Below, piece by piece: positions 48,311-63,995 of a stretch of DNA of 64,000 nt. This stretch comes from an uncultured delta proteobacterium. GTDB taxonomy: Bacteria > Desulfobacterota > Binatia > Binatales > Binataceae. The position numbers were made by a program, and so were the translations under genes. The notes under the pieces are model-generated. The model was not told the DNA's origin, did no database searches, and saw only the letters and a program-made list of their open reading frames with translations. The stretch lies in contig CAVXXK010000001.1 in assembly GCA_963765675.1 (NCBI GenBank), positions 768,001 through 832,000 on the forward strand. The letters are read 5' to 3'. The stretch's first letter is position 1. Each line of letters begins with the position of its first letter.

Positions 48311-49138
48311 TTGGCTAAAAGCAGTTCAGGGTCGAAGTCCGAGAGGTCGAGTGGCCAGCAGGAGGAAGCGACGACCGCCGACTCTGAGCAGACTGCTCGT
48401 AGCGGCGGCGCCGACAAACTCATCGAAGAGCTGCGGGAGGCGATCAAGGCCCGCGACGATTTCCTCGCTATCGCGACTCACGAACTCCGCAATCCACTGA
48501 CGCCAATCCTGCTCTGCCTGGAGCTCATTCGAGCTGCGGAAAAATCGAACGATCGCGCCAAGCTGCGCCATGAGATCGATCGCCTGGAGCGTCAGATTAA
48601 GCATTTTCTCGCCCGGATCAATGTCTTTCTCGAAGTCGCGCAAATTCGCTCGGGGAAGTCCAATCTCGATCTCTGCAAATTGAACTTGTCGCAGTTGATC
48701 TCGGGGATTGTGAACGACTACATGCCGCTGGTGGTGCGCAGCGGATCGGAGCTGACGATCAAGATCCAGAACGATGTTATGGCGTTCGTCGATCGGATGG
48801 CCGTATCGGAAATCGTAGAGAATTTACTTTCCAATGCGATCAAATATGGCCGGAGCAAACCGATCGAGATCGCTTTGACGGCTACAGCCGAAACCGCTCG
48901 GATAACCGTTCGCGACAACGGCATTGGCATTGACGAAAAAGATAAAGCACGCATATTTGAACGGTTTGAACGAGTGGCGAGCGGTCGGTTTCAATCCGGC
49001 TTTGGGATCGGACTGTGGCTCGCGCGGAATTTTGCAGAGTTGATGGGCGGCTCCATAACTGTATTCGGAAAATCGGGCGTCGGTTCACTTTTTACCGTGA
49101 CCTTGCCGACGGAAGAGGGGAGAATCCATGAGCAGTGA
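48311..49138 (+). CDS. Soluble histidine kinase without a sensor domain
   Basis: ATHELRNPL H box, NLLSNAIKY, DNGIG, IFERF, GFGIGL; start uncertain (TTG). Confidence 0.9.
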   Translation: MAKSSSGSKSERSSGQQEEATTADSEQTARSGGADKLIEELREAIKARDDFLAIATHELRNPLTPILLCLELIRAAEKSNDRAKLRHEIDRLERQIKHFLARINVFLEVAQIRSGKSNLDLCKLNLSQLISGIVNDYMPLVVRSGSELTIKIQNDVMAFVDRMAVSEIVENLLSNAIKYGRSKPIEIALTATAETARITVRDNGIGIDEKDKARIFERFERVASGRFQSGFGIGLWLARNFAELMGGSITVFGKSGVGSLFTVTLPTEEGRIHEQ

Positions 49139-50588
49139 CGTTCGACCGCTTACGCGCGTCCGCTCCGGCGTTAAAGGACTCGACGACATTCTCCGTGACG
49201 GCTTCTTCGGAGGTGGTCTGTATATCGTCGAGGGTCCGCCCGGGGTCGGCAAAACAATCCTGGGGAATCAAATTTGCTTCAATCAAGCAGCCGCCGGAAG
49301 CAGGGTTCTATACGTCACGCTGATCGCCGAAACGGTGGGTCGGATGCTGCTCAACATTAGAGGCCTGAGATTCTTTGACGAGGCCGTGGTCGGCAACGGC
49401 ATCTTCTATGTCAGCGGCTACAATGCGTTGAAGAAAGACGGCCTGTCGGGTTTGCTTCATTTACTGCGCAGAGAGGTCGCCGGCCGCAAAGCCACGACGC
49501 TGATCGTCGACGGCTTTGCTTCAACCTCCGATCACTCGCAATCGCGCGAGGAGTTGAAGCTGTTCGTGCAGCAGTTACAAACCCAGGCCGACGCCTCAGA
49601 CTGCACTGTCTTTTTGCTGACGAACCCAAGCGAGCAGAAGCCCTCGTCCGAAGAAACCATGGTTGACGGAATTATCAATCTCGGCACGACGGTCCACGAA
49701 TGGCGCTCGGCCCGCGAACTGTGCGTCCGAAAATTTCGCGGTAGTGCTTATCTTCAGGGTGTCCACTCGTATGACATCACCGAAGAAGGAATCACCGTCT
49801 ATCCGCGGCTCGAAACGCTGATCAGCTCGGGCACTGAGCTCAACGGGGAAACCAAGCGGGTTTTGTCCGGAAACCCGCGCCTGGATGCGATGCTCGGAGG
49901 CGGATTCCCCGCGCGCTCGTCGACTATGGTCATCGGGCCGTCCGGAACCGGGAAGAGCACTCTGGGTATGCAATTCCTGGCGCAATCAAACGCCGCAGAA
50001 CCGGGCCTGTTGTTCGGGTTTTACGAAAGACCCGAGCGAATCCGCGCCAAGGCAAAGACCATCTGTCCGCCGTTGCTGCAGCAACTCGATGCCGGCCACG
50101 TTCAGATTCTATGGCAACCGCCGACCGACCAGTTTCTCGACGAGCTCGCCGACCGGATGCTGCGCGATATCAAAAAGAGAAAGGTGAAGCGTCTGATGAT
50201 CGACGGTCTCGGCGGCTTCAAAAGAGCGCTCCGTTCGAGACCGATCGAGCCGTTTTTTTCCGCCCTGGTTCATGAATTGCGTGCGCAGGGAGTCACCTCG
50301 ATCTGTACGGCCGAAGTTATGGAGATCGTGGGACCGACTATCACCGTGCCGCTGCAGGGGTTGTCCGACGTGACCGACAATCACATCCTGCTGCGCTTTG
50401 TCGAATCAGGCGCGAGCCTGTACCGGGTGCTTTCGATACTCAAGGTGCGCGACAGCGCATTCGACTCTGATTTGCGGGAACTCCATTTCGCGGCTAGCGG
50501 ATTTGAACTCGCTGAAAACTCCGCGAGCGTCAAATCGATCCTGCCGCGGGTTGTTACGAAACCCCCAACCGAGGTGACTCAAGACTAA
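49128..50588 (+). CDS. KaiC-like double-domain RecA-fold ATPase
   Basis: SGVKGLDDIL...GPPGVGKT...RKFRG and SGNPRLDAML...GPSGTGKS...LKVR; overlaps the kinase stop. Confidence 0.9.
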   Translation: MSSDVRPLTRVRSGVKGLDDILRDGFFGGGLYIVEGPPGVGKTILGNQICFNQAAAGSRVLYVTLIAETVGRMLLNIRGLRFFDEAVVGNGIFYVSGYNALKKDGLSGLLHLLRREVAGRKATTLIVDGFASTSDHSQSREELKLFVQQLQTQADASDCTVFLLTNPSEQKPSSEETMVDGIINLGTTVHEWRSARELCVRKFRGSAYLQGVHSYDITEEGITVYPRLETLISSGTELNGETKRVLSGNPRLDAMLGGGFPARSSTMVIGPSGTGKSTLGMQFLAQSNAAEPGLLFGFYERPERIRAKAKTICPPLLQQLDAGHVQILWQPPTDQFLDELADRMLRDIKKRKVKRLMIDGLGGFKRALRSRPIEPFFSALVHELRAQGVTSICTAEVMEIVGPTITVPLQGLSDVTDNHILLRFVESGASLYRVLSILKVRDSAFDSDLRELHFAASGFELAENSASVKSILPRVVTKPPTEVTQD

Positions 50589-53068: not shown

Positions 53069-53176
53069 GCGCGAATCTCGCCGCGCCGGACAGCCGGTGC
53101 CGCTGCTTTGGCGCATCCCCCGCGGCGCACGCTCGCCGGACTTCTGCTATTCTCGGCGGGCGAGGGTACATACCTG

Positions 53177-54730
53177 ATGGCGGCAGGTGCATTACGTGTG
53201 AGCGCTCAGAACGCGCCGGCGCCGGAGCGCATATCGCTGGCGCGGTATTCTCCCGCGTTGCTGCTTCTTTCCACGGTGCTGATGATCGCGTACCGATGGC
53301 CCGATCCGGACCTTTGGTGGCACATCTTCTCGGGCCGCGCGATCCTGGCGACGCATCACCTGGTCTTTCCCGATCCATACTCGTACACCTCCGCAGGCGC
53401 GCTCTCGCACACGCAGGAGTGGCTATCGGACGTGATCATGGCCGTGGTGTACAACCACCTCGGCGTGCTCGGGCTCAGATGGCTCAACTTTGCGGTTGCC
53501 GCTGCAACGATTTTTTTCCTCGCGATGATCGCGGCCGAAACCGCCGCCGGCCCGACGCTGCAATTTGCGGTCGTACTCAGCGCGGCGATCGCAATGGGGC
53601 CGTTGATGCAAATTCGGCCGCAGATGTTCGACTATGCGATGCTGTCGGCGATCCTGTGGATGCTCACGCGCGACAATTTTGGGTGCCGTGCACCGCTATG
53701 GATCACGATCCCGATTCTCGCGCTGTGGGCAAATCTGCACGGCAGCTACTTCCTGCCGGTCGCGATCCTATCGCTATATGCAGGAGTCGCCGGGGTTGTT
53801 GGCGTCTGGACCGGTGCCGGATTGGGACGCGCGATTCGCGCCGGCGCCGTCGCGATCGGCGCAGCGATCGCGACGCTGGCCACGCCGTTCGGCGTGAACT
53901 CGTGGATCACGGTCGCGCATACGATGACCAATCCGCTCAACTCTCACCTGAGTGAGTGGCGCCCATTCGTGACCGTGATGGCCACGGAATGGAGTCACGG
54001 CGGCTTCGGGGACTTCAATTACCTGATCGTGCTCGCGATGATGGGGGCTACCGCTGCCGCGATCATCGTCCGGCCGCGCGGCCGTGACCTGCCGATGCTG
54101 GCGATCGCGGCTTTGACCTGCGCCGGAGCGTTCATGGCGATACGCGCGGTCGCTTACGCGGTGCTCGCGATGGTCGAGCCGCTGGCGAATCATTTCGGGC
54201 TATGGGCGGGAACACCGCGGGAACATCCGCGGCGGCAGGCGCTCGGGTTCCAAACAGCGATCGTCGCGCTGTCGATCGCGGTAGGCGCGGGGACCGGATT
54301 ATTTTCGCGCTCGCTCGATGCGGGTGACGTGCCCAATGGCGCGGTCGCGTTCATGGGCACGCACGATCTCCGCGGTAACGTGCTCGCGCGCTTTGACTGG
54401 GGCTTCTACCTGCTCTGGCACAGATGGCCAAACGCGCGGGTGTTTATCGATAGCCGCTACGACCTGCTGTACCCGAACCGCGTGGCAACGGAATACCTCG
54501 CATTCGACGGCGGCGGTCCGGCAGGGTCACGCGTACTCGATGAGTACCCAACTGACTATGTGCTGATCGCGCCGGACGCGGCAGCATTCGGGACGATGAT
54601 GCATCAACCTGGATGGGTACTTGTCTATCGCGACTCGAGTGCGGCGCTTTTCGCGCGCGCGGGATCGGCGGCGGCGCGGATTCCGGGCGTGCCGATTATC
54701 GCGAAGCGGCCGATCGCACTATTCCCTTGA
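53177..54730 (+). CDS. Polytopic membrane protein, possible GT-C fold glycosyltransferase
   Basis: DPDLWWH, DPYSYT, EWL, RPQ, LWANLHG, EWRP, FIDSRYD motifs with many TM segments; function is inferred. Confidence 0.6.
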   Translation: MAAGALRVSAQNAPAPERISLARYSPALLLLSTVLMIAYRWPDPDLWWHIFSGRAILATHHLVFPDPYSYTSAGALSHTQEWLSDVIMAVVYNHLGVLGLRWLNFAVAAATIFFLAMIAAETAAGPTLQFAVVLSAAIAMGPLMQIRPQMFDYAMLSAILWMLTRDNFGCRAPLWITIPILALWANLHGSYFLPVAILSLYAGVAGVVGVWTGAGLGRAIRAGAVAIGAAIATLATPFGVNSWITVAHTMTNPLNSHLSEWRPFVTVMATEWSHGGFGDFNYLIVLAMMGATAAAIIVRPRGRDLPMLAIAALTCAGAFMAIRAVAYAVLAMVEPLANHFGLWAGTPREHPRRQALGFQTAIVALSIAVGAGTGLFSRSLDAGDVPNGAVAFMGTHDLRGNVLARFDWGFYLLWHRWPNARVFIDSRYDLLYPNRVATEYLAFDGGGPAGSRVLDEYPTDYVLIAPDAAAFGTMMHQPGWVLVYRDSSAALFARAGSAAARIPGVPIIAKRPIALFP

Positions 54731-54859: not shown

Positions 54860-55642
54860 TCAAACCGACTGTCCTTCTGCGTGCGATATAGCGGCAGCTT
54901 GCCTTCCGCGTTCGTGCACAGGCAGTGGCCGCACGGCGTCTTTCCGCGGCAGTCTCGATAGCAGACGATATAATCTTTGCCGTCGCCCGGATGCTTGTAT
55001 GTCCCAACCCATGAAGGCGACGCTCCAGGCGGGCAATCGTGCGAACCGCCGCAGCACGAACAGAGCCATCCGATTCTCAGTTGTGATCATCATGGTGGCG
55101 GCTGGATCCGCCGGGACGCGCCTGGGTTTCTCGCCGGTCCATCGACGCCACAACCGTTTCAGCCCGCGCGCCAAGCGACGGAGCATTCGAGTCGAGGAGC
55201 CAGGCGATTGGAGCTCTGCGGGCGGCTCGCTGATCCTCGGACCAAACGCAGGGCACGGTCCTGCAGCGAAGGTCGCCGCGCGCAGCGAGCTTTCTGGCTC
55301 TGGCAGCGGGCGGCCGACATAATCGAGTGTAACGATCGAGCCCGGACGATCATTCACACGAAAGCACCACTTGCAGCGCACACATGTGTATAGATACGGC
55401 CGCGATTTCAAGCTTCCGGATCTCGGCACAGCCTCGATTGCAAAGCTGTGCCGAGCCTCGCGTGGTGCGAACGCATCGCGCGTCTTACGCGCGGCCGGCT
55501 TTTCGGATCTCTCCGTTCGCGGTTCGCTCTGATATTGGAATGGAGTGGGGACAAACTCGGTCAGTGGATAGACCCAAGAAAGCGGAATATCGCCCGCTTT
55601 CGTAACCGGCCACACGGCTCGAACTTCCCGACGCGGCTTCAT
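54860..55642 (-). CDS. Hypothetical protein with CxxCxxC...C motif
   Basis: 260-aa ORF filling an otherwise empty region; YTCVRCKWCF...GPCP; C-terminal extent doubtful. Confidence 0.45.
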   Translation of the reverse strand: MKPRREVRAVWPVTKAGDIPLSWVYPLTEFVPTPFQYQSEPRTERSEKPAARKTRDAFAPREARHSFAIEAVPRSGSLKSRPYLYTCVRCKWCFRVNDRPGSIVTLDYVGRPLPEPESSLRAATFAAGPCPAFGPRISEPPAELQSPGSSTRMLRRLARGLKRLWRRWTGEKPRRVPADPAATMMITTENRMALFVLRRFARLPAWSVAFMGWDIQASGRRQRLYRLLSRLPRKDAVRPLPVHERGRQAAAISHAEGQSV

Positions 55643-56076
55643 TTTTGCGCCTTCTCGTTGGTGAGGGACGTGACGGCCGGCACCACACCCGACTTAAACG
55701 CAAATACTGCGCCGGATGTCGGTCAGTATTCGCCGGCCACAGACCGGCATAAGCTTCGGCGGAAAATCTTCAATCAAATTGCGAGAATTACTTCCGACCC
55801 TGTCACCGGCGCCGGCTAATGCGGTTCTCCTGATTGGCAACCTTTTTCGGTTGAGCTGGGCGCGCAGCGCAGAATGAATTGCCGTGACGTTTCAGCTTGA
55901 ACGACTATGCGTGCTTCATCGCCAGGAAAGTCAGACAACTCCAGAGAAATCCGCCCGGCACAGGCGATGCTCTAGTCTCTTTTCATCGGCTGCTTTCCTC
56001 CGACTGGGGCCGATTTGAATTGGTCAGTTTGCAGAATACTCATACTCTTTTGTGCAGAAGGCTCGGTGATCATCAA

Positions 56077-56463
56077 ATGAAGAAAGTAGAAGCGATTCTG
56101 AGCCCGGACATTTTTGAAACGATCAGGGATATTCTCATCAGCCGCGGCTGCCGCGATTTCGTGGTCTCCGAGGTTAGAGGCGCGCCGGGCAATGGAGCGC
56201 AGCCAAAGCGTTTTCGCGGCATCGACTATACTCCTGATGAACCGAGACTGAAGCTCGAGACTGTTGTCGCCGACGAAGATGCGATGGCCACGGCGCACGT
56301 TATCCTGGCCGCATCGCATAGCGTCGAGGTATCAGGGCAAATGGTTACGGTGTGTGCGCTCGAGCGCGTCATTTCGATAGGTATATTAAATCTGGATGAC
56401 CAACCTATTGATTCTCGCGCCAGCTTCCGCAGAGAGTTACTGAGTAATGGAAGCCGTTCATAG
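56077..56463 (+). CDS. Divergent PII (GlnB/GlnK)-like protein
   Basis: MKKVEAIL, VSEVRG, FRGIDY (cf. YRGAEY), PRLKLETVV; lacks GDGKIF and RIRTGE. Confidence 0.78.
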   Translation: MKKVEAILSPDIFETIRDILISRGCRDFVVSEVRGAPGNGAQPKRFRGIDYTPDEPRLKLETVVADEDAMATAHVILAASHSVEVSGQMVTVCALERVISIGILNLDDQPIDSRASFRRELLSNGSRS

Positions 56464-56677
56464 TGAAATACGCTTAATCAGCTTCTGCTGAAGCCATCAG
56501 CGCGTGCTCGCAAACGCCGCAGCACATCAGTCTCCATAGCCCGTAGATTTCCTGTAAGTACAACGACTTTTCGCGAAGCACCGGTCTTGCAATCCGGTTT
56601 GGGTTCGCAACGCGTCGGCCCCCGTGGTCACCGCGTCTGCGTAGGCGACCCAAAACGGATTTAGAGGAATCAAGACT

Positions 56678-58489
56678 ATGTGGCTGCTTCCGATCTCGAT
56701 GCTTGTAACTACGACCCTGCTGGCCATTCCATTGAGCCGTTATCTCGCCTGGATCATGAATGGCGAATATCGTCCGCCGCGGTGGTTGCAATCGATCGAG
56801 ACTCGGCTTGATCTCGGTCAGCAGGACTGGAAGCAGTACACAGTCGCGTTGCTGATCTTCAACTTCCTGCTGTTCGTGTACACCTACGTGGTTTTGGCAG
56901 TGCAACCGCTGATGCCGTTGAACCAGCTCCATCGCGGAATGCTGGCGCCGACCACGATCGTCCATGCGGCGATCTCGTTGTGTACCAACACTGATCTGCA
57001 ACACTGGTCCGGAGATTCGCAGTTTTCCAATTTCAGCCAGATCTTCGCGATGATCGCGAATTTCTTCTTCTCCGCGTCAATAGGGTTTTGCGCGCTCACC
57101 GCGATCATTCGTGCGCTTCGTGATGGTCCTCGCAAGGTTGGCAGCTTTTTCCTGGATATGTGGCGGGTCATGATTTACATGTTCCTGCCGATCGGTTTCG
57201 TTCTCTCCATCGCCTTCCTGCAACAGGGCTCTCCTATGACTTTCCGGGCGGCTCAGATGGTGTCCACCGTTGAGCCGGCCTCGATGGGCACCACTGATAA
57301 CGGGCAGGCGAAGCAGCAGACGGTCGTGCTAGGTCCTCTCGCCGCATTCGTGCCGATGAAACAGCGCGGCACCAACGGCGGAGGGTTCTACGGCGCCAAC
57401 TCGGCGCATCCTTTCGAAAACCCCACGGCGTTCACAAATTTCCTGTCGAGCGTCGGAATGATGCTGTTCCCGTTCGCATTGGTGCTGATGTACGGCCGCA
57501 TGCTGCACAAGCAGCGCCATGCGTGGGTGATTTTCTCGGTGATGATGGTGTTGATGATCGGTACCGTCATCTGGTCCGTGTACTTCGATACCCATAAACC
57601 GAACCCCGGCCTCACCGCACACCCAGTCGAGCGGAAATTCGAGTTGGACACGGCAGGCGGAAAGAAAGCGATCGTTCTGCCTGCTGTCGCGGGACTGCCG
57701 GTCGATCAGCATCTGGGAAATCTGGAAAGCAAAGAGCTTCGTTTTGGAACTTCCGCCGGCGCAACTTTCGCGGCGATGACGGTCGACGTCACGTGCGGAG
57801 CGGTAAACTGCGCTCACGATAGTCTGAATCCTATTGCCGCGTTGTCCCCGATGGCTGGAATGTGGGTGAACTGCATATACGGCGGCAAGGGCGTGGGCAT
57901 GATCAACCTGCTCGTGTTCCTGATTATCGGAGTATTCGTAGCCGGCCAGATGGTCGGTCGAACACCCGAATATCTGGGCAAGAAGATCGGCGGACGCGAA
58001 ATGAAGCTGGCGATGATCGGTCTCCTGATTCACCCGATCATGATTCTCGGGCCTACCGGACTTTTCGCTGCAACTAGTTGGGGCCAAAAGGCCGAGTTCA
58101 ACCCGGGTGCTCACGGCTTCTCGGAAGTCATGTACGAGTTCTCCTCGGCGTCGGCCAATAACGGATCCGGTTTCGAGGGGTTGGGGGACACGTGGGGTCT
58201 CAACGACAACCCGAGTCCTGCGCCAACCAGCAGGGCGTGGGATTTCGCAACCGTCATCGTAATAACTATCAGTCGATTTATCCCGATAATCGCTCCCATC
58301 GCTCTAGCTGCAGGCATGGGTGCGAAGAAGACCGCCCCGTTCGGACTGGGTACGATGCGCGACGATACGGTTACATTCGCCCTACTGCTGATCGGAACGA
58401 TCGTGATTATCGGCGCGCTGCTGTTTCTTCCCGTAGCGGCTCTTGGACCGATTGCGGAGCATCTGGGGCCAATCCCCTTTGGCGGGTAG
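56678..58489 (+). CDS. kdpA: K+-transporting ATPase subunit A, copy 1 (variant filter motifs)
   Basis: TNTDLQ, GTNGGGF...NSAHPFENP, KELRFG, TCGAVN, GRTPEYLGKK, SANNGS, LGPIAEHL; GAGG RBS. Confidence 0.93.
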   Translation: MWLLPISMLVTTTLLAIPLSRYLAWIMNGEYRPPRWLQSIETRLDLGQQDWKQYTVALLIFNFLLFVYTYVVLAVQPLMPLNQLHRGMLAPTTIVHAAISLCTNTDLQHWSGDSQFSNFSQIFAMIANFFFSASIGFCALTAIIRALRDGPRKVGSFFLDMWRVMIYMFLPIGFVLSIAFLQQGSPMTFRAAQMVSTVEPASMGTTDNGQAKQQTVVLGPLAAFVPMKQRGTNGGGFYGANSAHPFENPTAFTNFLSSVGMMLFPFALVLMYGRMLHKQRHAWVIFSVMMVLMIGTVIWSVYFDTHKPNPGLTAHPVERKFELDTAGGKKAIVLPAVAGLPVDQHLGNLESKELRFGTSAGATFAAMTVDVTCGAVNCAHDSLNPIAALSPMAGMWVNCIYGGKGVGMINLLVFLIIGVFVAGQMVGRTPEYLGKKIGGREMKLAMIGLLIHPIMILGPTGLFAATSWGQKAEFNPGAHGFSEVMYEFSSASANNGSGFEGLGDTWGLNDNPSPAPTSRAWDFATVIVITISRFIPIIAPIALAAGMGAKKTAPFGLGTMRDDTVTFALLLIGTIVIIGALLFLPVAALGPIAEHLGPIPFGG

Positions 58490-58699
58490 GCTGCCGAGAA
58501 CGAGTAATGTTGCATACACCTTTCAAAATGAAATGTTCACGAGTGCAGAACTCATCGAGGGCAAGAGTCCAGAGGCGATTTTACCGACAATCCGTGGTTG
58601 CGGCTCAGTGGCATCGCTGTTGCTCAATTAGAATTTCTGAGGGTCTCTTCAAAACTGAATCCCTAAGAAAACAGATAGCGGCTCTGGAGAAATAGGACG

Positions 58700-58795
58700 A
58701 TGGACTTAATGATTTGGATCCCGATCACATTTTTTCTGGGCGTAGGAACGATGGTGCTCTGTTATGCCTTCCTGATCGCCTGCGAGAAAATCTGA
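58700..58795 (+). CDS. 31-aa hydrophobic peptide upstream of kdpF (not in the ORF track)
   Basis: MDLMIWIPITFFLGVGTMVLCYAFLIACEKI*, AGGA upstream, 11 bp before kdpF. Confidence 0.7.
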   Translation: MDLMIWIPITFFLGVGTMVLCYAFLIACEKI

Positions 58796-58806
58796 GGAAC
58801 CGCACC

Positions 58807-58887
58807 ATGATCTATCTTACCGCAATAGTCTGTGTGTTGTTATTTGTGTATCTGACTGTCGCGTTGGTTCGCCCCGAATGGTTCTAG
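58807..58887 (+). CDS. kdpF: K+-transporting ATPase subunit F (not in the ORF track)
   Basis: MIYLTAIVCVLLFVYLTVALVRPEWF* with YLxxALxxPExF signature; GAGGA RBS; directly before kdpA. Confidence 0.9.
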   Translation: MIYLTAIVCVLLFVYLTVALVRPEWF

Positions 58888-58906
58888 GCGTCCGGCTTTT
58901 GAGGTA

Positions 58907-60736
58907 ATGACGATGACTCAATATTGGCTTCTTCCGGCCGCGTTAATCGTGGTGGCCATCGCGGTTTCCATTCCATTGAGCAAATACGCAGCGTGGATAA
59001 TGGAAGGCCATTACCATCCGCCGCGGCTGTTCGCCTGGTTTGAGAAAAAGCTCGACAGCGGACCGCAGGGCTGGAAACAGTACACTGCGGCGCTGCTGAT
59101 CTTTAATCTCGTGCTGTTCGTCTGGGGTTACCTGGTGCTTGCGCTACAGCCATTCACGCCGCTCAACCCTCGGGGTTTGGGCATGTTGGCGCCAACAACC
59201 ATCTTCAATACCGTCACGTCATTCATGACGAATACCAACCTGCAGGATTATGCAGGCGATGTTAATTTCTCAAACTTTACCCAGATATTTTTTACAATCT
59301 CTAATCAGTATATTTCGGCGGCAGTCGGGTTTTGTGCACTTGCGGCGATAATCAGGGCTTTTCGCGGTGAATCGAAAGTCGGGAATTTCTTCGTCGATAT
59401 GTGGCGCGTCCTGATCTACATGTTCGTCCCCGCCGCGATTCTGGTGGGCGTGCTCTTCATTCAGCAAGGGATGCCGATGACATTTCAGAGCACTGTGCAG
59501 GCGACCACGGTCGAACCTGGAGCGATGGGTACCGACGACAAGGGAGCGGCGAAGCAGCAGACCATCGTAATGGGGCCGGTCGCCGCGATGATACCGATCA
59601 AACAGCTCGGCACCAATGGTGGCGGGTTTTTCGGCGCCAATTCCGCTCAGCCATATGAAAATCCCAGCGCATGGACGAACTTCCTCACCTGCCTAGCGAT
59701 GATGATTTTTCCGTTCACGCTGGTGCTGATGTTCGGCCGAATGCTCAGAAAAATGCTGCACGCTATCGTTATCTACGCGGTGATGTTGACCCTGATGGTG
59801 GGGATGATCGTGTGGGCGATTTACTTCGAGCTGAAGCCAAACCCAGGCCTGACAGCTCATCCGACCAGCGTGACTTATAAGATTCCCAGCGCTACCGCGG
59901 CTGGCGGATTCCGGGAGATCAAGATTCCAACCGTTGCCGGACTGCCGGTTGATCAGCACAGCGGGAACCTGGAGGGCAAGGAACTGCGTTTCGGTACTGT
60001 CGCAGGACCAACCTTTGCGGCGTTAACCACTGCGGTTACCTGCGGCGCCGTCGACTGCGCGCACGATAGCTTGAACCCGCTGACGGGACTCTCGCCGATG
60101 GTGGGCATGTGGCTGAACTGCGTATTCGGCGGCAAGGGTGTCGGAATGATTAATCTCCTGCTCTTCCTGATCATCGGCGTATTTATTGCGGGCCAGATGG
60201 TGGGGAGATCGCCCGAATACCTGGGCCGGAAAGTCGGCGCACGCGAGGTCAAGCTGGCGGTTATCGCGCTCTTGGTTCATCCACTGATGATCCTCGGGCC
60301 CACCGGAGTGTTCGCCGCTACCAACTGGGGAATCAAAGCGGAATTAAATCCCGCCGCGCATGGCTTCTCGGAGGTTATGTATCAATTCAGCTCGGCATCG
60401 GCGAACAACGGTTCGGGTTTCGAGGGACTTGGCGACACCTGGGGATTTAACGCCAACCCCAATCCAGCTCCGACCAGCCAGGCTTTGGACATAGCGGCAG
60501 GATTGGTCATGCTGTTCAGCCGATATCTACCCATCGTCGCGCCGATTGCGATGGCGGCTTTCCTCGGGATCAAGAAGGAGGCGCCGTATGGGCTCGGGAC
60601 CATGCGCGACGACACGTTGACATTTTATTTCCTGTTGCTCGGCACCATCGTGATTATCGGAGCGCTGCTGTTTCTGCCGGTCGCAGCGCTTGGTCCGTTA
60701 GCGGACCACCTGGGTCCGATACCGTTTGGTGGATGA
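58907..60736 (+). CDS. kdpA: K+-transporting ATPase subunit A, copy 2 (canonical)
   Basis: SFMTNTNLQ, IKQLGTNGGG, EGKELRFG, TTAVTCGAV, SANNGS. Confidence 0.95.
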   Translation: MTMTQYWLLPAALIVVAIAVSIPLSKYAAWIMEGHYHPPRLFAWFEKKLDSGPQGWKQYTAALLIFNLVLFVWGYLVLALQPFTPLNPRGLGMLAPTTIFNTVTSFMTNTNLQDYAGDVNFSNFTQIFFTISNQYISAAVGFCALAAIIRAFRGESKVGNFFVDMWRVLIYMFVPAAILVGVLFIQQGMPMTFQSTVQATTVEPGAMGTDDKGAAKQQTIVMGPVAAMIPIKQLGTNGGGFFGANSAQPYENPSAWTNFLTCLAMMIFPFTLVLMFGRMLRKMLHAIVIYAVMLTLMVGMIVWAIYFELKPNPGLTAHPTSVTYKIPSATAAGGFREIKIPTVAGLPVDQHSGNLEGKELRFGTVAGPTFAALTTAVTCGAVDCAHDSLNPLTGLSPMVGMWLNCVFGGKGVGMINLLLFLIIGVFIAGQMVGRSPEYLGRKVGAREVKLAVIALLVHPLMILGPTGVFAATNWGIKAELNPAAHGFSEVMYQFSSASANNGSGFEGLGDTWGFNANPNPAPTSQALDIAAGLVMLFSRYLPIVAPIAMAAFLGIKKEAPYGLGTMRDDTLTFYFLLLGTIVIIGALLFLPVAALGPLADHLGPIPFGG

Positions 60737-60786
60737 GTAACTAAGTAACGAAGAGCCACAGGACTTTTTCGACGGAGCAATCGAAA

Positions 60787-62950
60787 ATGGAAGCACTTAA
60801 AGACGCGCCGATACCGGAACTGAACATCGATCCGCCGCTACCTGCACCACCGCGACGCTCGCGTGCGCAGGCGCTGTTCGCGCCGGAGCTCGTGCGCCCG
60901 GCGATCAAGGAAGCATTCTTGATGCTTCGTCCCGAGGTTCAATGGCGCAACCCGGTGATGTTCGTGGTCGAAATTGGCGCCGTGCTCACGGCTCTGTTTA
61001 TCATCCAGGCGGCGCTGGGGGCCTCATCCAGCCAGGTATCAGTCAACTATTTCATTGCCCTCGATTTCTGGTTGTGGCTGACAGTACTATTCGCGAACTT
61101 TGCGACCGCGCTGGCGGAGGCCCGCGGCCGCGCGCAAACTGAATCGCTGCGCCGGGCCCGCACCGATACGCCGGCGTACCGTCTCAAGGGCGCGGACATC
61201 ATCGAAGAGATTCTGGCTTCCGACCTTCATCCGGGCGACCGGGTGGTCGTGAAGGCTGGCCAGGTAATTCCGGGTGACGGCGAAATCATCGAGGGGATCG
61301 CTTCGGTGGACGAGTCGGCAATCACCGGCGAATCCGCTCCAGTGATCCGCGAGTCGGGGGGTGATCGGTCAGGAGTGACAGGGGGCACTCGAGTGATCTC
61401 AGACAGTATAGTTGTGAGAATCACCGCGGCGGCCGGGGAATCATTTCTCGATCGAATGATCGCGCTGGTCGAGGGCGCGGTTCGTCAGCGCACGCCTAAT
61501 GAAATTGCGCTCAGCCTGGTGCTGACGGCGTTCACGCTCATCTTTCTGATCGTCGTCGTTCCGCTGTGGCCGATGGCGTTGAATGCGGAAATATACATGA
61601 TGAGCTATCTCGGCATCACCGAGCCGCTCAAGAGTCTCGGAACCGATGTTCCAACCCTTGTCGCACTTCTAGTCTGTCTGATTCCTACTACAATTGGCGC
61701 CTTGCTCGCGGCGATCGGCATCGCGGGCATGGATCGAGCCCTGCAGGCCAATATCCTCGCTAAGAGCGGCAAGGCGGTCGAGACGGCGGGCGATATCGAC
61801 ACCGTGTTACTCGACAAGACTGGCACGATCACGATGGGCAATAGGCATGCGACTGAGTTTGTTCCAGTTGGAAGGTATACTGCGCTCGAGCTCGGCCGGC
61901 TGGCTGCGATGGCTTCGATCGCGGATGAGACGCCCGAAGGCAAAACTATAGTCAAACTCTATTTCGAACGAGGCGGCGGAGCCGGCGATCTCAACGTTCC
62001 GAAAGGAGCAGAGTTCGTTCCGTTTTCCGCGCAAACGCGGATGAGTGGAGTCGACCTCCCGGGCGGCAGGACGATTCGCAAAGGCGCACCTGACGCTGTG
62101 CTTCGCTTTGTTGAACGTCAGTCGATGGCGGTGCCCGCAGATCTGCAGCCGACCGTGAACTCGATCGCATCACTGGGCGCGACGCCGCTGGTAGTTGCCG
62201 ACGGTGCGAGCATCGCGGGCGTTGTGGTGCTCTCAGACGTCCTCAAAGCCGGAATCAGCGAGCGCCTCGAGCGCCTGCGCAAGATGGGCGTGACGGAGCG
62301 TGATGATCACCGGAGACAACCCGCTTACCGCCGCGACGATCGCGAAACAGGCCGGGGTTGATGATTTCGTTGCCCAGTGCACGCCGGAGTCGAAGCTCGC
62401 CTACATCAGGAACGAACAGGCGGCGGGCAAGCTGGTTGCGATGGTCGGTGACGGCACCAACGACGCGCCCGCGCTCGCACAGGCCGATGTGGGCCTCGCA
62501 ATGAACTCGGGCACACAAGCCGCCAAGGAAGCAGGCAACATGGTGGACCTGGACAGCAATCCCACCAAGTTGCTCGAGGTCGTCGAGATTGGAAAGCAGC
62601 TACTCATGACGCGCGGCTCGTTGACCACGTTTTCGATTGCAAACGACGTTGCCAAATATTTCGCGATCGTGCCGGCGCTGTTCGCAGGGACGCTACCCTG
62701 GCTGAAGGCGATGGACGTGATGCATCTGCATTCGCCGATCTCGGCCATACTCTCGGCCGTGATCTTCAATGCGGTAATCATTCCATTACTCATTCCGATC
62801 GCTTTGCGTGGCGTTCAGTATCGCCCGCTGGGCGCCGATGCGTTGCTCAGGCGAAACCTGCTGGTCTGGGGGCTCGGCGGCGTTCTTCTGCCGTTCGTAG
62901 GAATAAAGCTGATCGACATGATCATGGTGGCCGGGCACTTGGTTGCCTGA
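60787..62950 (+). CDS. kdpB: K+-transporting ATPase subunit B, frameshifted near 62293
   Basis: NPVMFVV, TGES, CLIPTT, DKTGT, KGA; then [28 protein letters not shown]. Removing one A at 62293 gives [12 protein letters not shown]. Confidence 0.93.
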
Positions 62951-62978
62951 CGAAGACAGAATCCAGAGGAGCATTTCT

Positions 62979-63995
62979 ATGGGACGCTATTTTTCGAAGA
63001 GTTTTCTTCTCTTTCTCTTCGTGATTCCGACTGTCTGTATCGCATACCCGCTGTTTCTGTGGGTGATTGGCCAGGTATTCTTCCCATTCCAGGCCAACGG
63101 CAGCATCCTGCGGGACGCCCATGGCAATGCAATTGGCTCACTACTGATCGCTCAACCGTTCACCAAGGACGAGTACTTCCAGCCGCGTCCATCGGCGGCG
63201 TCCTACGACGCTTCGGCCTCGGCTCCCTCGAATCTCTCGGCCTCCAACTATGCGCTGCGGGATCGGGTCGCGCGCTCGCTCGGGCCAATCGTCAAATACG
63301 CCGACGGACCAAAGAAGGGTCAGCTCGTCGCACCTGACGTTGAAGCGTGGTTCCAGCAGGACAAGTTCGGCGGACAGCCGCACATCGTTGCCCAGTGGGC
63401 CGACGCTCACAACGAGCTCGCGACGGGTTGGGTGAACGCGGATCCGTCGCATGGCGCGTATGTGGACGATTGGTCCAAAAAACATCCAGGCGTCGTCGCA
63501 CAGTTCAAGAAAGACAATCCTGGAACGCCGGATCCAAAAGCTCCGGATCTCGCGGTGGTGTTTTTCGAGACTTTTTCGAAGGAAAATCCGGGCAAGTTTC
63601 CGTCTTCTGTTTCGCATCAGGGTGCAGACGGCAAGACTACGACTGCGATCGAGCCGGTGGCTGATGGCTCGGACATACAATCGATCTTCTTCGATATGTG
63701 GCGCCAGGAGCACGCTGACGTCCAGCTCGAGGATGTTCCCGGAGATATGGTTACGGCGTCAGGCTCCGGCCTTGATCCTGATATCAGCATGCAAAACGCT
63801 GAGTATCAGATCGACCGTGTTGCGCAGAAGTGGGCTTCGGACACCAAGCGTGATCCCAAACAGGTGCATGACGAGATCGAGCAGATATTGCGGGCGAACG
63901 CGCAGGCGCCATTTGGCGGATTGGCCGGCGAACAGTTCGTGAACGTGCTTCAGGTAAACCTGGGCTTGAAAGAGCGTTACGGCGAACCCAAGTGA
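62979..63995 (+). CDS. kdpC: K+-transporting ATPase subunit C with large internal insertion
   Basis: GAGGAG RBS; YP...FPFQANGS, GSLLIAQPF, YFQPRPSA, VPGDMVTASGSGLDPDIS, VNVLQVN; 338 aa. Confidence 0.9.
   Translation: MGRYFSKSFLLFLFVIPTVCIAYPLFLWVIGQVFFPFQANGSILRDAHGNAIGSLLIAQPFTKDEYFQPRPSAASYDASASAPSNLSASNYALRDRVARSLGPIVKYADGPKKGQLVAPDVEAWFQQDKFGGQPHIVAQWADAHNELATGWVNADPSHGAYVDDWSKKHPGVVAQFKKDNPGTPDPKAPDLAVVFFETFSKENPGKFPSSVSHQGADGKTTTAIEPVADGSDIQSIFFDMWRQEHADVQLEDVPGDMVTASGSGLDPDISMQNAEYQIDRVAQKWASDTKRDPKQVHDEIEQILRANAQAPFGGLAGEQFVNVLQVNLGLKERYGEPK

Follow-up and report, generated by a model that had tools for sequence, protein, structure and literature searches.

A long-type kdp locus with two divergent kdpA genes and a PII-like gene in the Binataceae

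The stretch of DNA analysed here (the window; 64,000 nucleotides (nt), G000:C1:768001-832000) comes from an uncultured soil bacterium of the family Binataceae and carries, on its + strand at positions 56077-63995, an unusual version of the kdp operon in which two kdpA genes lie in tandem. Seven co-oriented genes were recognised from the list of open reading frames (ORFs) and from Pfam and NCBIfam profile scans of the window, in the order PII-like gene, kdpA1, an ORF of 31 amino acids (aa) that we call p31, kdpF, kdpA2, kdpB and a long form of kdpC. The original prediction, which was made from the letters of the window, had listed these same genes, and all seven were confirmed together with their shared orientation and their coordinates. 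That prediction overlooked a frameshift in kdpB and the continuation of the operon past the window end, where a gene for a 374-aa PAS-HisKA-HATPase kinase directly follows kdpC and is itself followed by a gene for a 444-aa response regulator with receiver, sigma-54 AAA+ and helix-turn-helix domains. In what follows, G numbers denote Binataceae family genomes, the source genome being G000, and L numbers denote fetched loci. The features of the locus are given below, where the cut-off for PF03814 is 22.6 bits.

55956..55970, + strand: candidate sigma-54 promoter P1 (CGGCAC-N5-ATGC; GG and GC 10 bases apart, 2 mismatches)
56077..56463, + strand: PII-like gene, 128 aa (PF00543 36.7 bits, cut-off 25)
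56678..58489, + strand: kdpA1, 603 aa (PF03814 588.5 bits; TIGR00680 477.1, cut-off 387.7)
58609..58623, + strand: candidate sigma-54 promoter P2 (TGGCATCGCTGTTGC; one mismatch to TGGCAC-N5-TTGC)
58700..58795, + strand: p31, 31-aa ORF for a conserved membrane peptide with a single helix; candidate additional subunit of Kdp
58807..58887, + strand: kdpF, 26 aa (PF09604 24.9, cut-off 21.2; TIGR02115 26.2, just below its cut-off of 26.85)
58907..60736, + strand: kdpA2, 609 aa, in the usual place after kdpF (PF03814 602.9 bits; TIGR00680 478.4, cut-off 387.7)
60787..62950, + strand: kdpB, approximately 720 aa when read through (TIGR01497), split by an extra A at 62293
62943..63995, + strand: kdpC, long form (PF02669), 350 aa from the TTG at 62943 or 338 aa from the ATG at 62979

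KdpFABC of Escherichia coli is the classic example of functional coupling between a channel-like protein and a P-type ATPase, and nearly all mechanistic work has been carried out on it. The window locus shares with this complex (5MRW, 6HRA, 7BGY) the four subunit families, the order kdpF-A-B-C, the filter motifs of KdpA, the TGES, DKTGT and D-x-x-K motifs of KdpB, and the core fold of KdpC (Z 13.7). It differs from the E. coli system in that p31 precedes kdpF, KdpA is longer, KdpC carries an insertion, a PAS kinase and a sigma-54 regulator replace KdpD and KdpE, and a second kdpA and a PII-like gene are present. Small extra ORFs have reportedly been seen in other kdp operons, namely kdpG of cyanobacteria and kdpZ, kdpY and kdpX of Clostridium acetobutylicum, for which a literature look-up yielded nothing useful. 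As precedents, these operons have small hydrophobic peptide genes and occur in genomes with two kdp operons, and we know of none with two kdpA genes in one operon or with a PII-like gene. A full-text literature search, at the level of listings and abstracts, returned nothing on tandem kdpA, a PII gene at kdp, long KdpC or Kdp in Binatota, in line with the view that the layout is non-canonical and without a known characterised precedent. In extracts of PMC6255902, KdpFABC is described as having four subunits.

The kdpB gene is read in two frames. Positions 60787-62361 correspond to TIGR01497 profile positions 3-464 (571.5 bits, cut-off 527.9), and positions 62300-62950 correspond to 466-674 of 675 (394.7 bits). 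The P-type ATPase motifs TGES, DKTGT and GDGTND are present in the translations, and the break consists of a single additional A at 62293 (GTG-A-CGG). Taken at face value, the two frames would agree with a dead locus in which kdpB is truly frameshifted and the work is done by a canonical kdp locus elsewhere in the same genome:

G000:C1:1,061,700-1,070,760 (L005:1696-10757), minus strand: canonical kdp locus, about 240 kb away

This second locus is complete, with kdpA (577 aa, PF03814 827 bits), kdpB (680 aa) and kdpC (196 aa); it further encodes a free-standing 391-aa KdpD-sensor/Usp protein, a 595-aa PAS kinase and a 448-aa sigma-54 regulator. In this locus a separate sensor protein and kinase thus stand for KdpD, and an NtrC-type activator takes the place of KdpE. 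The window KdpA proteins are only 34-39% identical to the canonical KdpA.

The comparison of the break with other sequences nonetheless argues against a true frameshift. The extra A is absent from all four aligned relatives. When contigs of four public short-read runs (X1-X4) were mapped to the locus, the two that bridge 62293/62294 (runs X1 and X2) were both one base shorter there, and the X1 contig is otherwise identical to the window across 281 nt. The X4 contig ends at 62293, without 62294, and is uninformative on this point; contig cover of the locus is patchy in these runs (17 to 26 of 30 bins), and none of the contigs spans kdpA1 to kdpA2. Moreover, kdpB is otherwise undamaged, with its two pieces covering profile positions 3-674 of 675. 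Because both bridging contigs and 4/4 relatives lack the extra base, we consider the frameshift most likely to be a consensus or assembly error in an intact kdpB, with odds of roughly 9 to 1, and the dead locus to be highly improbable. The G000 assembly consists of 16 contigs, one of them 2.4 Mb long, and comparable frame breaks were found by tblastn in other few-contig genomes of the family (kdpC in G009, L018/L030; both kdpB and kdpC in G065, L106), as would be expected if indel errors are widespread in assemblies of this kind in the family.

Three kinds of encoded protein set the locus apart from the E. coli pump. KdpA1 and KdpA2 are both approximately 50 residues longer than E. coli KdpA and carry three insertions, each of which adjoins a filter motif. 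A one-residue gap in the phmmer alignment, which may be ambiguous at this point, leaves E. coli Glu370 with no counterpart in KdpA1 (near residue 395, window 57690-57720) or at the same place in KdpA2; this glutamate attracts ions into the tunnel according to extracts of PMC12629597.

KdpC contains an insertion of approximately 133 residues (about 117-251). PF02669 matches the protein with 179.4 bits (cut-off 24.1) in two stretches, with a break at about profile position 100, and the NCBIfam equivalog cut-offs are missed (NF001454 164.1 versus 178; TIGR00681 142.2 versus 152.55) because the insertion splits the match. Mean column identity in the alignment of long KdpC proteins is 70%, and the insertion is strongly conserved. 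The AlphaFold2 (AF2) model of the protein has a mean predicted local distance difference test score (pLDDT) of 83.4, with blocks inside the insertion at 84-97, and its best match in the PDB is E. coli KdpC (7bgy_C; Z 13.7, root-mean-square deviation 3.3, 181/190 residues). Searched by itself, the insertion matched neither a Pfam family nor any PDB sequence, and the ESM Atlas gave nothing usable. We do not claim a new fold for it, given that the whole-model fold search matched KdpC only and barely probed the other parts. Since KdpC is described as periplasmically oriented in extracts of PMC6255902, and both KdpA and KdpC carry insertions, we infer that the outer face of this type of pump is enlarged.

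The third distinctive component, p31, always measures exactly 31 aa and ends in ACE-x-I. Its consensus is M-x-L-x-x-W-L-P-A-M-F-x-L-G-L-x-x-M-G-L-C-Y-A-F-L-x-A-C-E-K-I, with five invariant columns among 34 ungapped sequences. Sixty-eight long kdpA genes had sufficient DNA upstream to be scored; p31 lies no more than 450 nt upstream of 54 of them and directly downstream of another six (60/68). A p31 profile searched against 1.84 billion cluster representatives gave 404 matches at E<=1e-3 and 83 at 1e-10, and among the 150 matches listed the matching segment nearly always forms the last 31 residues of the protein. No NCBIfam family was matched, and in Pfam only MCU appeared, below its cut-off (18.3 versus 30.8). 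The nearest ESM Atlas clusters are unnamed 31-aa proteins, and the named members (from the clusters of two relatives, and one from that of the window peptide) are labelled hypothetical or uncharacterised. On the basis of its conservation and position, p31 is a candidate extra Kdp subunit.

This combination of genes is not confined to the window. A search for long KdpC with one genome per species gave 346 candidate stretches, 322 of them with relatives, and the best 80 were fetched. The usual layout in these 80 loci is p31, kdpF, kdpA of approximately 605 aa, kdpB and kdpC of approximately 340 aa. Nine phyla are named in the titles of the records, which are distributed as follows.

Pseudomonadota: 14 of 80 loci
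Binatota: 13 of 80 loci
Thermodesulfobacteriota: 10 of 80 loci
Myxococcota: 8 of 80 loci
Verrucomicrobiota: 7 of 80 loci
Margulisiibacteriota: 3 of 80 loci
Planctomycetota: 2 of 80 loci
Spirochaetota: 2 of 80 loci
Chlamydiota: 1 of 80 loci
Titled 'uncultured delta proteobacterium': 20 of 80 loci

Cultured hosts include Roseiarcus fermentans, Paraburkholderia elongata and Paraherbaspirillum soli. Between phyla, long KdpC proteins share 60-70% identity, which points to gene transfer. The words bog, fen, palsa or SPRUCE appear in several isolate names and give only a hint of habitat. Thus, the core consisting of p31, KdpF, KdpA of approximately 605 aa, KdpB and KdpC of approximately 340 aa is a widespread variant, hereafter called long-type Kdp, that is unnamed in the libraries and literature searched. 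Relative to known Kdp systems, the new elements are p31, the insertion in KdpC, the loops in KdpA, a putative control by sigma-54, the genes of PII type and the additional kdpA. The tandem kdpA of the window is a rare state within this broader and more interesting finding.

Long-type operons also occur in other multiple arrangements. Head-to-tail pairs of complete operons, about 5.6 kb apart, are present in seven of 165 family genomes (G084, G087, G067, G072, G074, G079 and G082), and paired operons were likewise seen in the fetched loci L032, L049, L060, L080, L081 and L102. In L028, L077, L105 and L106, a long-type operon is directly followed by a canonical kdpABC, so that these loci form 'kdp islands'. 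The Myxococcota-labelled locus L040 has an additional full-length long kdpA alone after a response regulator gene (L040:10103-11923), downstream of a complete long-type operon. Two further operons have rearranged heads, p31-kdpA-p31-kdpF-kdpB with a degenerate first p31 in L073:5466-7758 and p31-kdpF-kdpA-kdpF-kdpB with a kdpA broken in assembly in L094:5502-7793. These two heads suggest that the small genes and kdpA have recombined unequally on more than one occasion.

The two kdpA genes of the window are old and distinct. Their products are 66% identical (66.7% in aligned codons), and their synonymous divergence (dS) is about 2.2. This value, and the same tandem in the assemblies of three other genomes, agree with the earlier statement that the pair is not an assembly duplicate. 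The original prediction also called for a KdpA phylogeny, and in the careful tree of 53 rows the two proteins do fall into separate clades of long KdpA. KdpA1 and five relatives, all six encoded upstream of p31, form one clade (support 100/100), which is nested in a 17-row clade (99/99) with forms from Verrucomicrobiota, Margulisiibacteriota and other Binatia. KdpA2 belongs to another clade (100/100), which in a larger tree is placed with forms from Myxococcota and Pseudomonadota. Forcing KdpA1 and KdpA2 to be monophyletic costs 85.8 log-likelihood units and is rejected by the approximately unbiased (AU) test (p-AU 0.0017), as it is for the N-terminal part (p 0.0005). A simple or fresh tandem duplication is thus not supported, and the placement of the proteins in different clades implies that kdpA1 derives from another long-type operon lineage. 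We infer that a tandem of whole operons followed by loss of kdpB and kdpC from the first is a plausible origin.

Two further ideas on the history of kdpA1 were dropped. One was a mosaic gene whose 3' end had been converted by kdpA2. A tree of the C-terminal columns (KdpA1 residues 473-603) joins the two proteins with a value of 86 in the Shimodaira-Hasegawa-like approximate likelihood ratio test (SH-aLRT), a grouping named post hoc after shared motifs had been noticed. The same columns do not reject KdpA1 with its N-terminal sisters (p-AU 0.40), and gene conversion was not upheld. The other idea was an argument for transfer from base composition: the GC content of the locus is 0.54-0.61 and that of the genome 0.615, a difference too small to be used.

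Both genes appear to have been maintained by selection. The ratio of nonsynonymous to synonymous divergence (dN/dS) for kdpA1 is 0.039-0.052 across deep pairs, in which synonymous sites are saturated, and 0.166 in the comparison with G003. For kdpA2, it is 0.041-0.073 in 26/28 pairs, 0 against G003 (protein 100% identical, dN 0, dS 0.058) and 0.149 for L029-L027. The decay of kdpA1 that had been named as a reason to abandon the idea of two working channel genes (dN/dS near 1) is not observed, with values for this gene between 0.04 and 0.17. By this measure, kdpA1 is intact and under purifying selection.

The distribution of the two genes was surveyed in 165 Binataceae genomes, where long kdpA was scored at E<=1e-150 and an A1-type gene at 84% identity or more. 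A long kdpA is present in 68 of the genomes and an A1-type gene in seven. The synteny search that the original prediction had proposed recovered the tandem arrangement A1-p31-kdpF-A2-kdpB-kdpC in G003, G042 and G125 besides the source genome (4/165), and these four genomes span three genus codes (g1, g32, g39). Three others (G023, G056 and G065) have the order PII-A1-p31-kdpF-kdpB-kdpC without A2. A2 is the only copy in G001, G009, G014 and a Candidatus Binatus soli record (L027).

The KdpB proteins of tandem loci, of A2-only loci and of one A1-only locus (L028) form a single 10-row clade (SH-aLRT 100). Those of G023 and G065 are absent from the tree and match the N-terminal piece of the window KdpB at 84% identity in tblastn, equal to the value for L028. 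Given these shared KdpB relatives, which we regard as the strongest evidence on this point, either KdpA seems able to serve one pump. The proposal that one ATPase may use interchangeable channel subunits gains support, in this respect, from the A1-only, A2-only and tandem loci that share the KdpB clade.

The same loss patterns can be read in another way. kdpA1 may be a redundant leftover of recombination between neighbouring long-type operons, a slow replacement intermediate with no distinct role in which one copy or the other is lost by chance. The raw material for such events exists, since whole long-type operons lie in tandem in the seven family genomes and several fetched loci listed above. 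The KdpA and KdpB trees disagree on partners, which implies that kdpA has been swapped between operons. Losses have occurred in both directions (A1 in G001, G009, G014 and L027; A2 in G023, G056 and G065), and recent amino-acid change has been greater in A1 than in A2. However, the tandem has persisted since its carriers diverged to dS values above 1.4, with dN/dS of about 0.05 in both copies and across three genus codes, whereas one would expect quicker decay of a copy that is entirely redundant. The clades of A1 and A2 are also separated by 60 fixed differences, which include two charged residues beside the filter. We therefore consider a functionless leftover to be possible but doubtful.

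The fixed differences between the two KdpA clades are informative about what two subunits might do differently. Both proteins keep the four selectivity-filter motifs TNT[DN]LQ, GTNGGG, TCGAV and NNGS, including the glycine at E. coli position 232, as judged by alignment to E. coli 6hra_A with motif roles taken in part from extracts of PMC12629597. Across 601 aligned columns, 322 are invariant and shared by the two clades, and nine of the 60 fixed differences alter charge. The first filter motif reads T-N-T-D-L-Q-H in A1 and T-N-T-N-L-Q-D in A2, so that two of the charge differences correspond to E. coli positions 114 and 117, on either side of Gln116 (Asp and His in A1, Asn and Asp in A2). According to extracts of PMC12629597, negative charge at the filter entrance of the E. 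coli protein gives a higher apparent affinity, and the Q116H variant has a Km that becomes pH-dependent. By analogy, a difference in affinity or pH response between A1 and A2 isoforms of the pump is plausible.

The PII-like protein is a divergent member of its family. It lies far below the GlnB and GlnK equivalog cut-offs (NF008111 36.7 versus 202; NF007946 33.5 versus 181). Its AF2 model (mean pLDDT 73.6) nevertheless has a beta-alpha-beta-beta-alpha-beta core, and the best Foldseek matches in the PDB are GlnB and GlnK structures (E about 2e-8, probability 1.00). In canonical PII proteins, the GDGKIF-type loop and C-terminal arginines serve in nucleotide binding. At the positions where the canonical sequences in the alignment read GDGKIF and R-I-R-T, the protein of the window has SGQMVTV and S-I-G-I, and its ligand may therefore differ. 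Two other PII genes in the genome are each about 30% identical to it.

The linkage of such genes to kdp is recurrent. For 63 operon heads, 1.5 kb or more of upstream DNA was available, and in 17 of these an iterated local search detected a same-strand PII-like ORF no more than 3 kb upstream. This proportion is far above chance given two or three PII genes per genome, with the reservation that related genomes are not independent. Several PII subtypes are involved, and those before A1 in other loci (rows L029, L028 and L007) are only 23-25% identical to the window protein. PII genes precede A1 in G042, G056, G065 and G023, of which that of G065 was left out of the alignment. A word-based search for relatives of the PII-like protein returned 12 proteins, which says little about the range of the family. 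The PII-Kdp link is thus real and general, and the linkage that the original prediction had required in relatives is present. The further suggestion that the PII-like protein regulates the choice between channels is not supported as a general role, because PII-like genes head single-kdpA operons as well.

Within the A1/A2 clade, a PII gene is present in five of six loci with A1 and in one of four without it, and a special tie to A1 or a local role there is possible. The exception among loci with A1 is L026 (= G125), where Amt-like ammonium-transporter ORFs in two frames replace the PII-like gene (L026:1823-3076). Amt, PII and Kdp may be connected, as this arrangement would allow.

Transporter-linked PII proteins are known in the pairs GlnK-AmtB and SbtB-SbtA, and the window resembles these systems in having a PII-fold gene next to and co-directional with a transporter gene, a likeness of gene linkage alone. 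It differs from them in that neither the GDGKIF-type loop nor the C-terminal arginines are present in the protein, and in that its partner would be a P-type pump or a kinase. The resemblance raises the question of whether KdpA1 could work by itself as a K+ channel or transporter, with the PII-like protein as its gate in the manner of those pairs. The tie just described within the clade, and the position of the PII-like gene and kdpA1 as a separate unit upstream of the promoter-like site before p31, would agree with this idea. Against it, A1-type genes are the sole long kdpA in G023, G056 and G065 and have kdpB and kdpC downstream in the same operon, and PII-like genes also head the single-kdpA operons of other clades. 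We know of no stand-alone activity of KdpA. In solved structures the KdpA pore is sealed towards the cytoplasm, according to extracts of PMC6255902. The suggestion in the original prediction that KdpA1 might work without the pump is accordingly not borne out, and we judge a separate channel to be very unlikely.

Two candidate promoters point to how the genes may be controlled. P1 precedes the start codon of the PII-like gene by about 107 nt, and an element of the same form is found at the matching place before the PII-like gene in the window, L024, L029, L028 and L007, with different letters in the spacer. P2 (TGGCATCGCTGTTGC) lies between kdpA1 and p31, 77 nt upstream of p31, and the same or a near-identical element is present 87-91 nt upstream of p31 in L023, L024, L026, L029 and L030. 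Because these candidate sites are conserved and a sigma-54 activator is encoded downstream, the arrangement suggests two co-regulated units, one of PII and kdpA1 and the other of p31-kdpF-kdpA2-kdpB-kdpC-kinase-regulator.

Other regulatory elements were sought with negative results. No sigma-70-like sites were found in 55600-58950 (2.0 expected), terminator-like sites are about as frequent as expected by chance and are absent between kdpA1 and p31, and an Rfam scan of 55400-59000 at E<=1 gave no match, so that no cyclic di-AMP riboswitch or other known leader was detected. The locus recalls the NtrB-NtrC-GlnB system in combining a PAS kinase, a sigma-54 regulator, GG-N10-GC sites and a PII-family protein at one place. 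It differs in that no NtrB model is among the 25 best NCBIfam matches of the kinase, which are of PnpS, WalK, PhoR and AtoS type (68 matches, all below cut-off), and in that the AtoC, ZraR and NtrC models matched by the regulator are likewise all below cut-off.

Taken together, these observations lead us to favour a reading in which the locus encodes a working long-type pump with KdpA1 and KdpA2 as alternative subunits and the PII-like protein as an accessory. We give this reading as a whole a probability of about 0.58. The pump would be composed of p31, KdpF, a KdpA with three extra loops beside its filter motifs, KdpB, and a KdpC enlarged by a domain of approximately 133 residues. The PII-like gene and kdpA1 would form a second, upstream unit with its own candidate sigma-54 promoter, and kdpA1 would have been acquired from another long-type kdp operon lineage and then kept intact. 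KdpA1 and KdpA2 would act as alternative K+-selective subunits, each assembling with the same KdpB, KdpC, KdpF and p31, to give two pump isoforms that differ by the 60 fixed residues, among them the two charged ones beside the first filter motif. The PII-like protein would be a regulatory accessory of long-type Kdp generally and, by analogy with other PII systems, may act on the pump or the kinase.

Several observations weigh against this reading. The bridging contigs that argue for an intact kdpB are shallow (depth 3.6 and 4.4), and run X1 could stem from the very sample that yielded the genome. Repeated losses of A1, of which nothing but remnants upstream of p31 is left in two genomes (47 residues with stop codons nearby in G001; 31 residues in G014), show that it is dispensable in many lineages. 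On the most recent branch, that to G003, A1 has accumulated 15 residue changes and A2 none (dN/dS 0.166 versus 0), which fits some relaxation of constraint on A1. The Asp and Asn variants of the filter are each also found in single-copy operons, and therefore the difference between A1 and A2 need not mean specialisation. Matches to the sigma-54 pattern with up to two mismatches are not enriched in the window (58, with 62.5 expected from shuffles), so the promoter calls rest on position and conservation only. Finally, the related genomes compared here are non-independent observations that represent few independent events.

Two sizeable ORFs just upstream of the locus, 53108-54730 (+ strand, 540 aa) and 54860-55642 (- strand, 260 aa), have no Pfam match at E<=0.001. 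Further away, at 48311-50588, a gene for a HisKA/HATPase kinase (275 aa) is followed by one for a KaiC-like double ATPase (486 aa), and both are unrelated to kdp.

A wider proposal can be put forward as a speculative idea that we think unlikely to hold in full. Long-type Kdp may represent a distinct class of K+ pump with five or six components (a KdpA with enlarged loops, KdpB, a KdpC with a new domain, KdpF, an invariably 31-aa subunit and often a degenerate PII protein), and gene transfer may have carried it to soil and peat bacteria in many phyla. Some Binataceae might then switch between subunits of different filter charge, expressed from separate sigma-54 promoters, to tune K+ capture to pH or K+ supply.

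A widespread variant with p31, the KdpC addition and the KdpA loops would show which parts of the Kdp machine can vary, and long-type Kdp provides structural studies with a new subject. The repeated occurrence of PII-like genes suggests that PII signalling and K+ uptake are connected in a way not yet described. For the Binataceae, the genomes that carry A1 alone, A2 alone or the two together amount to a natural subunit-swap experiment on what is seemingly one KdpB/KdpC background, which makes it testable how far KdpA alone sets affinity, selectivity and pH dependence.

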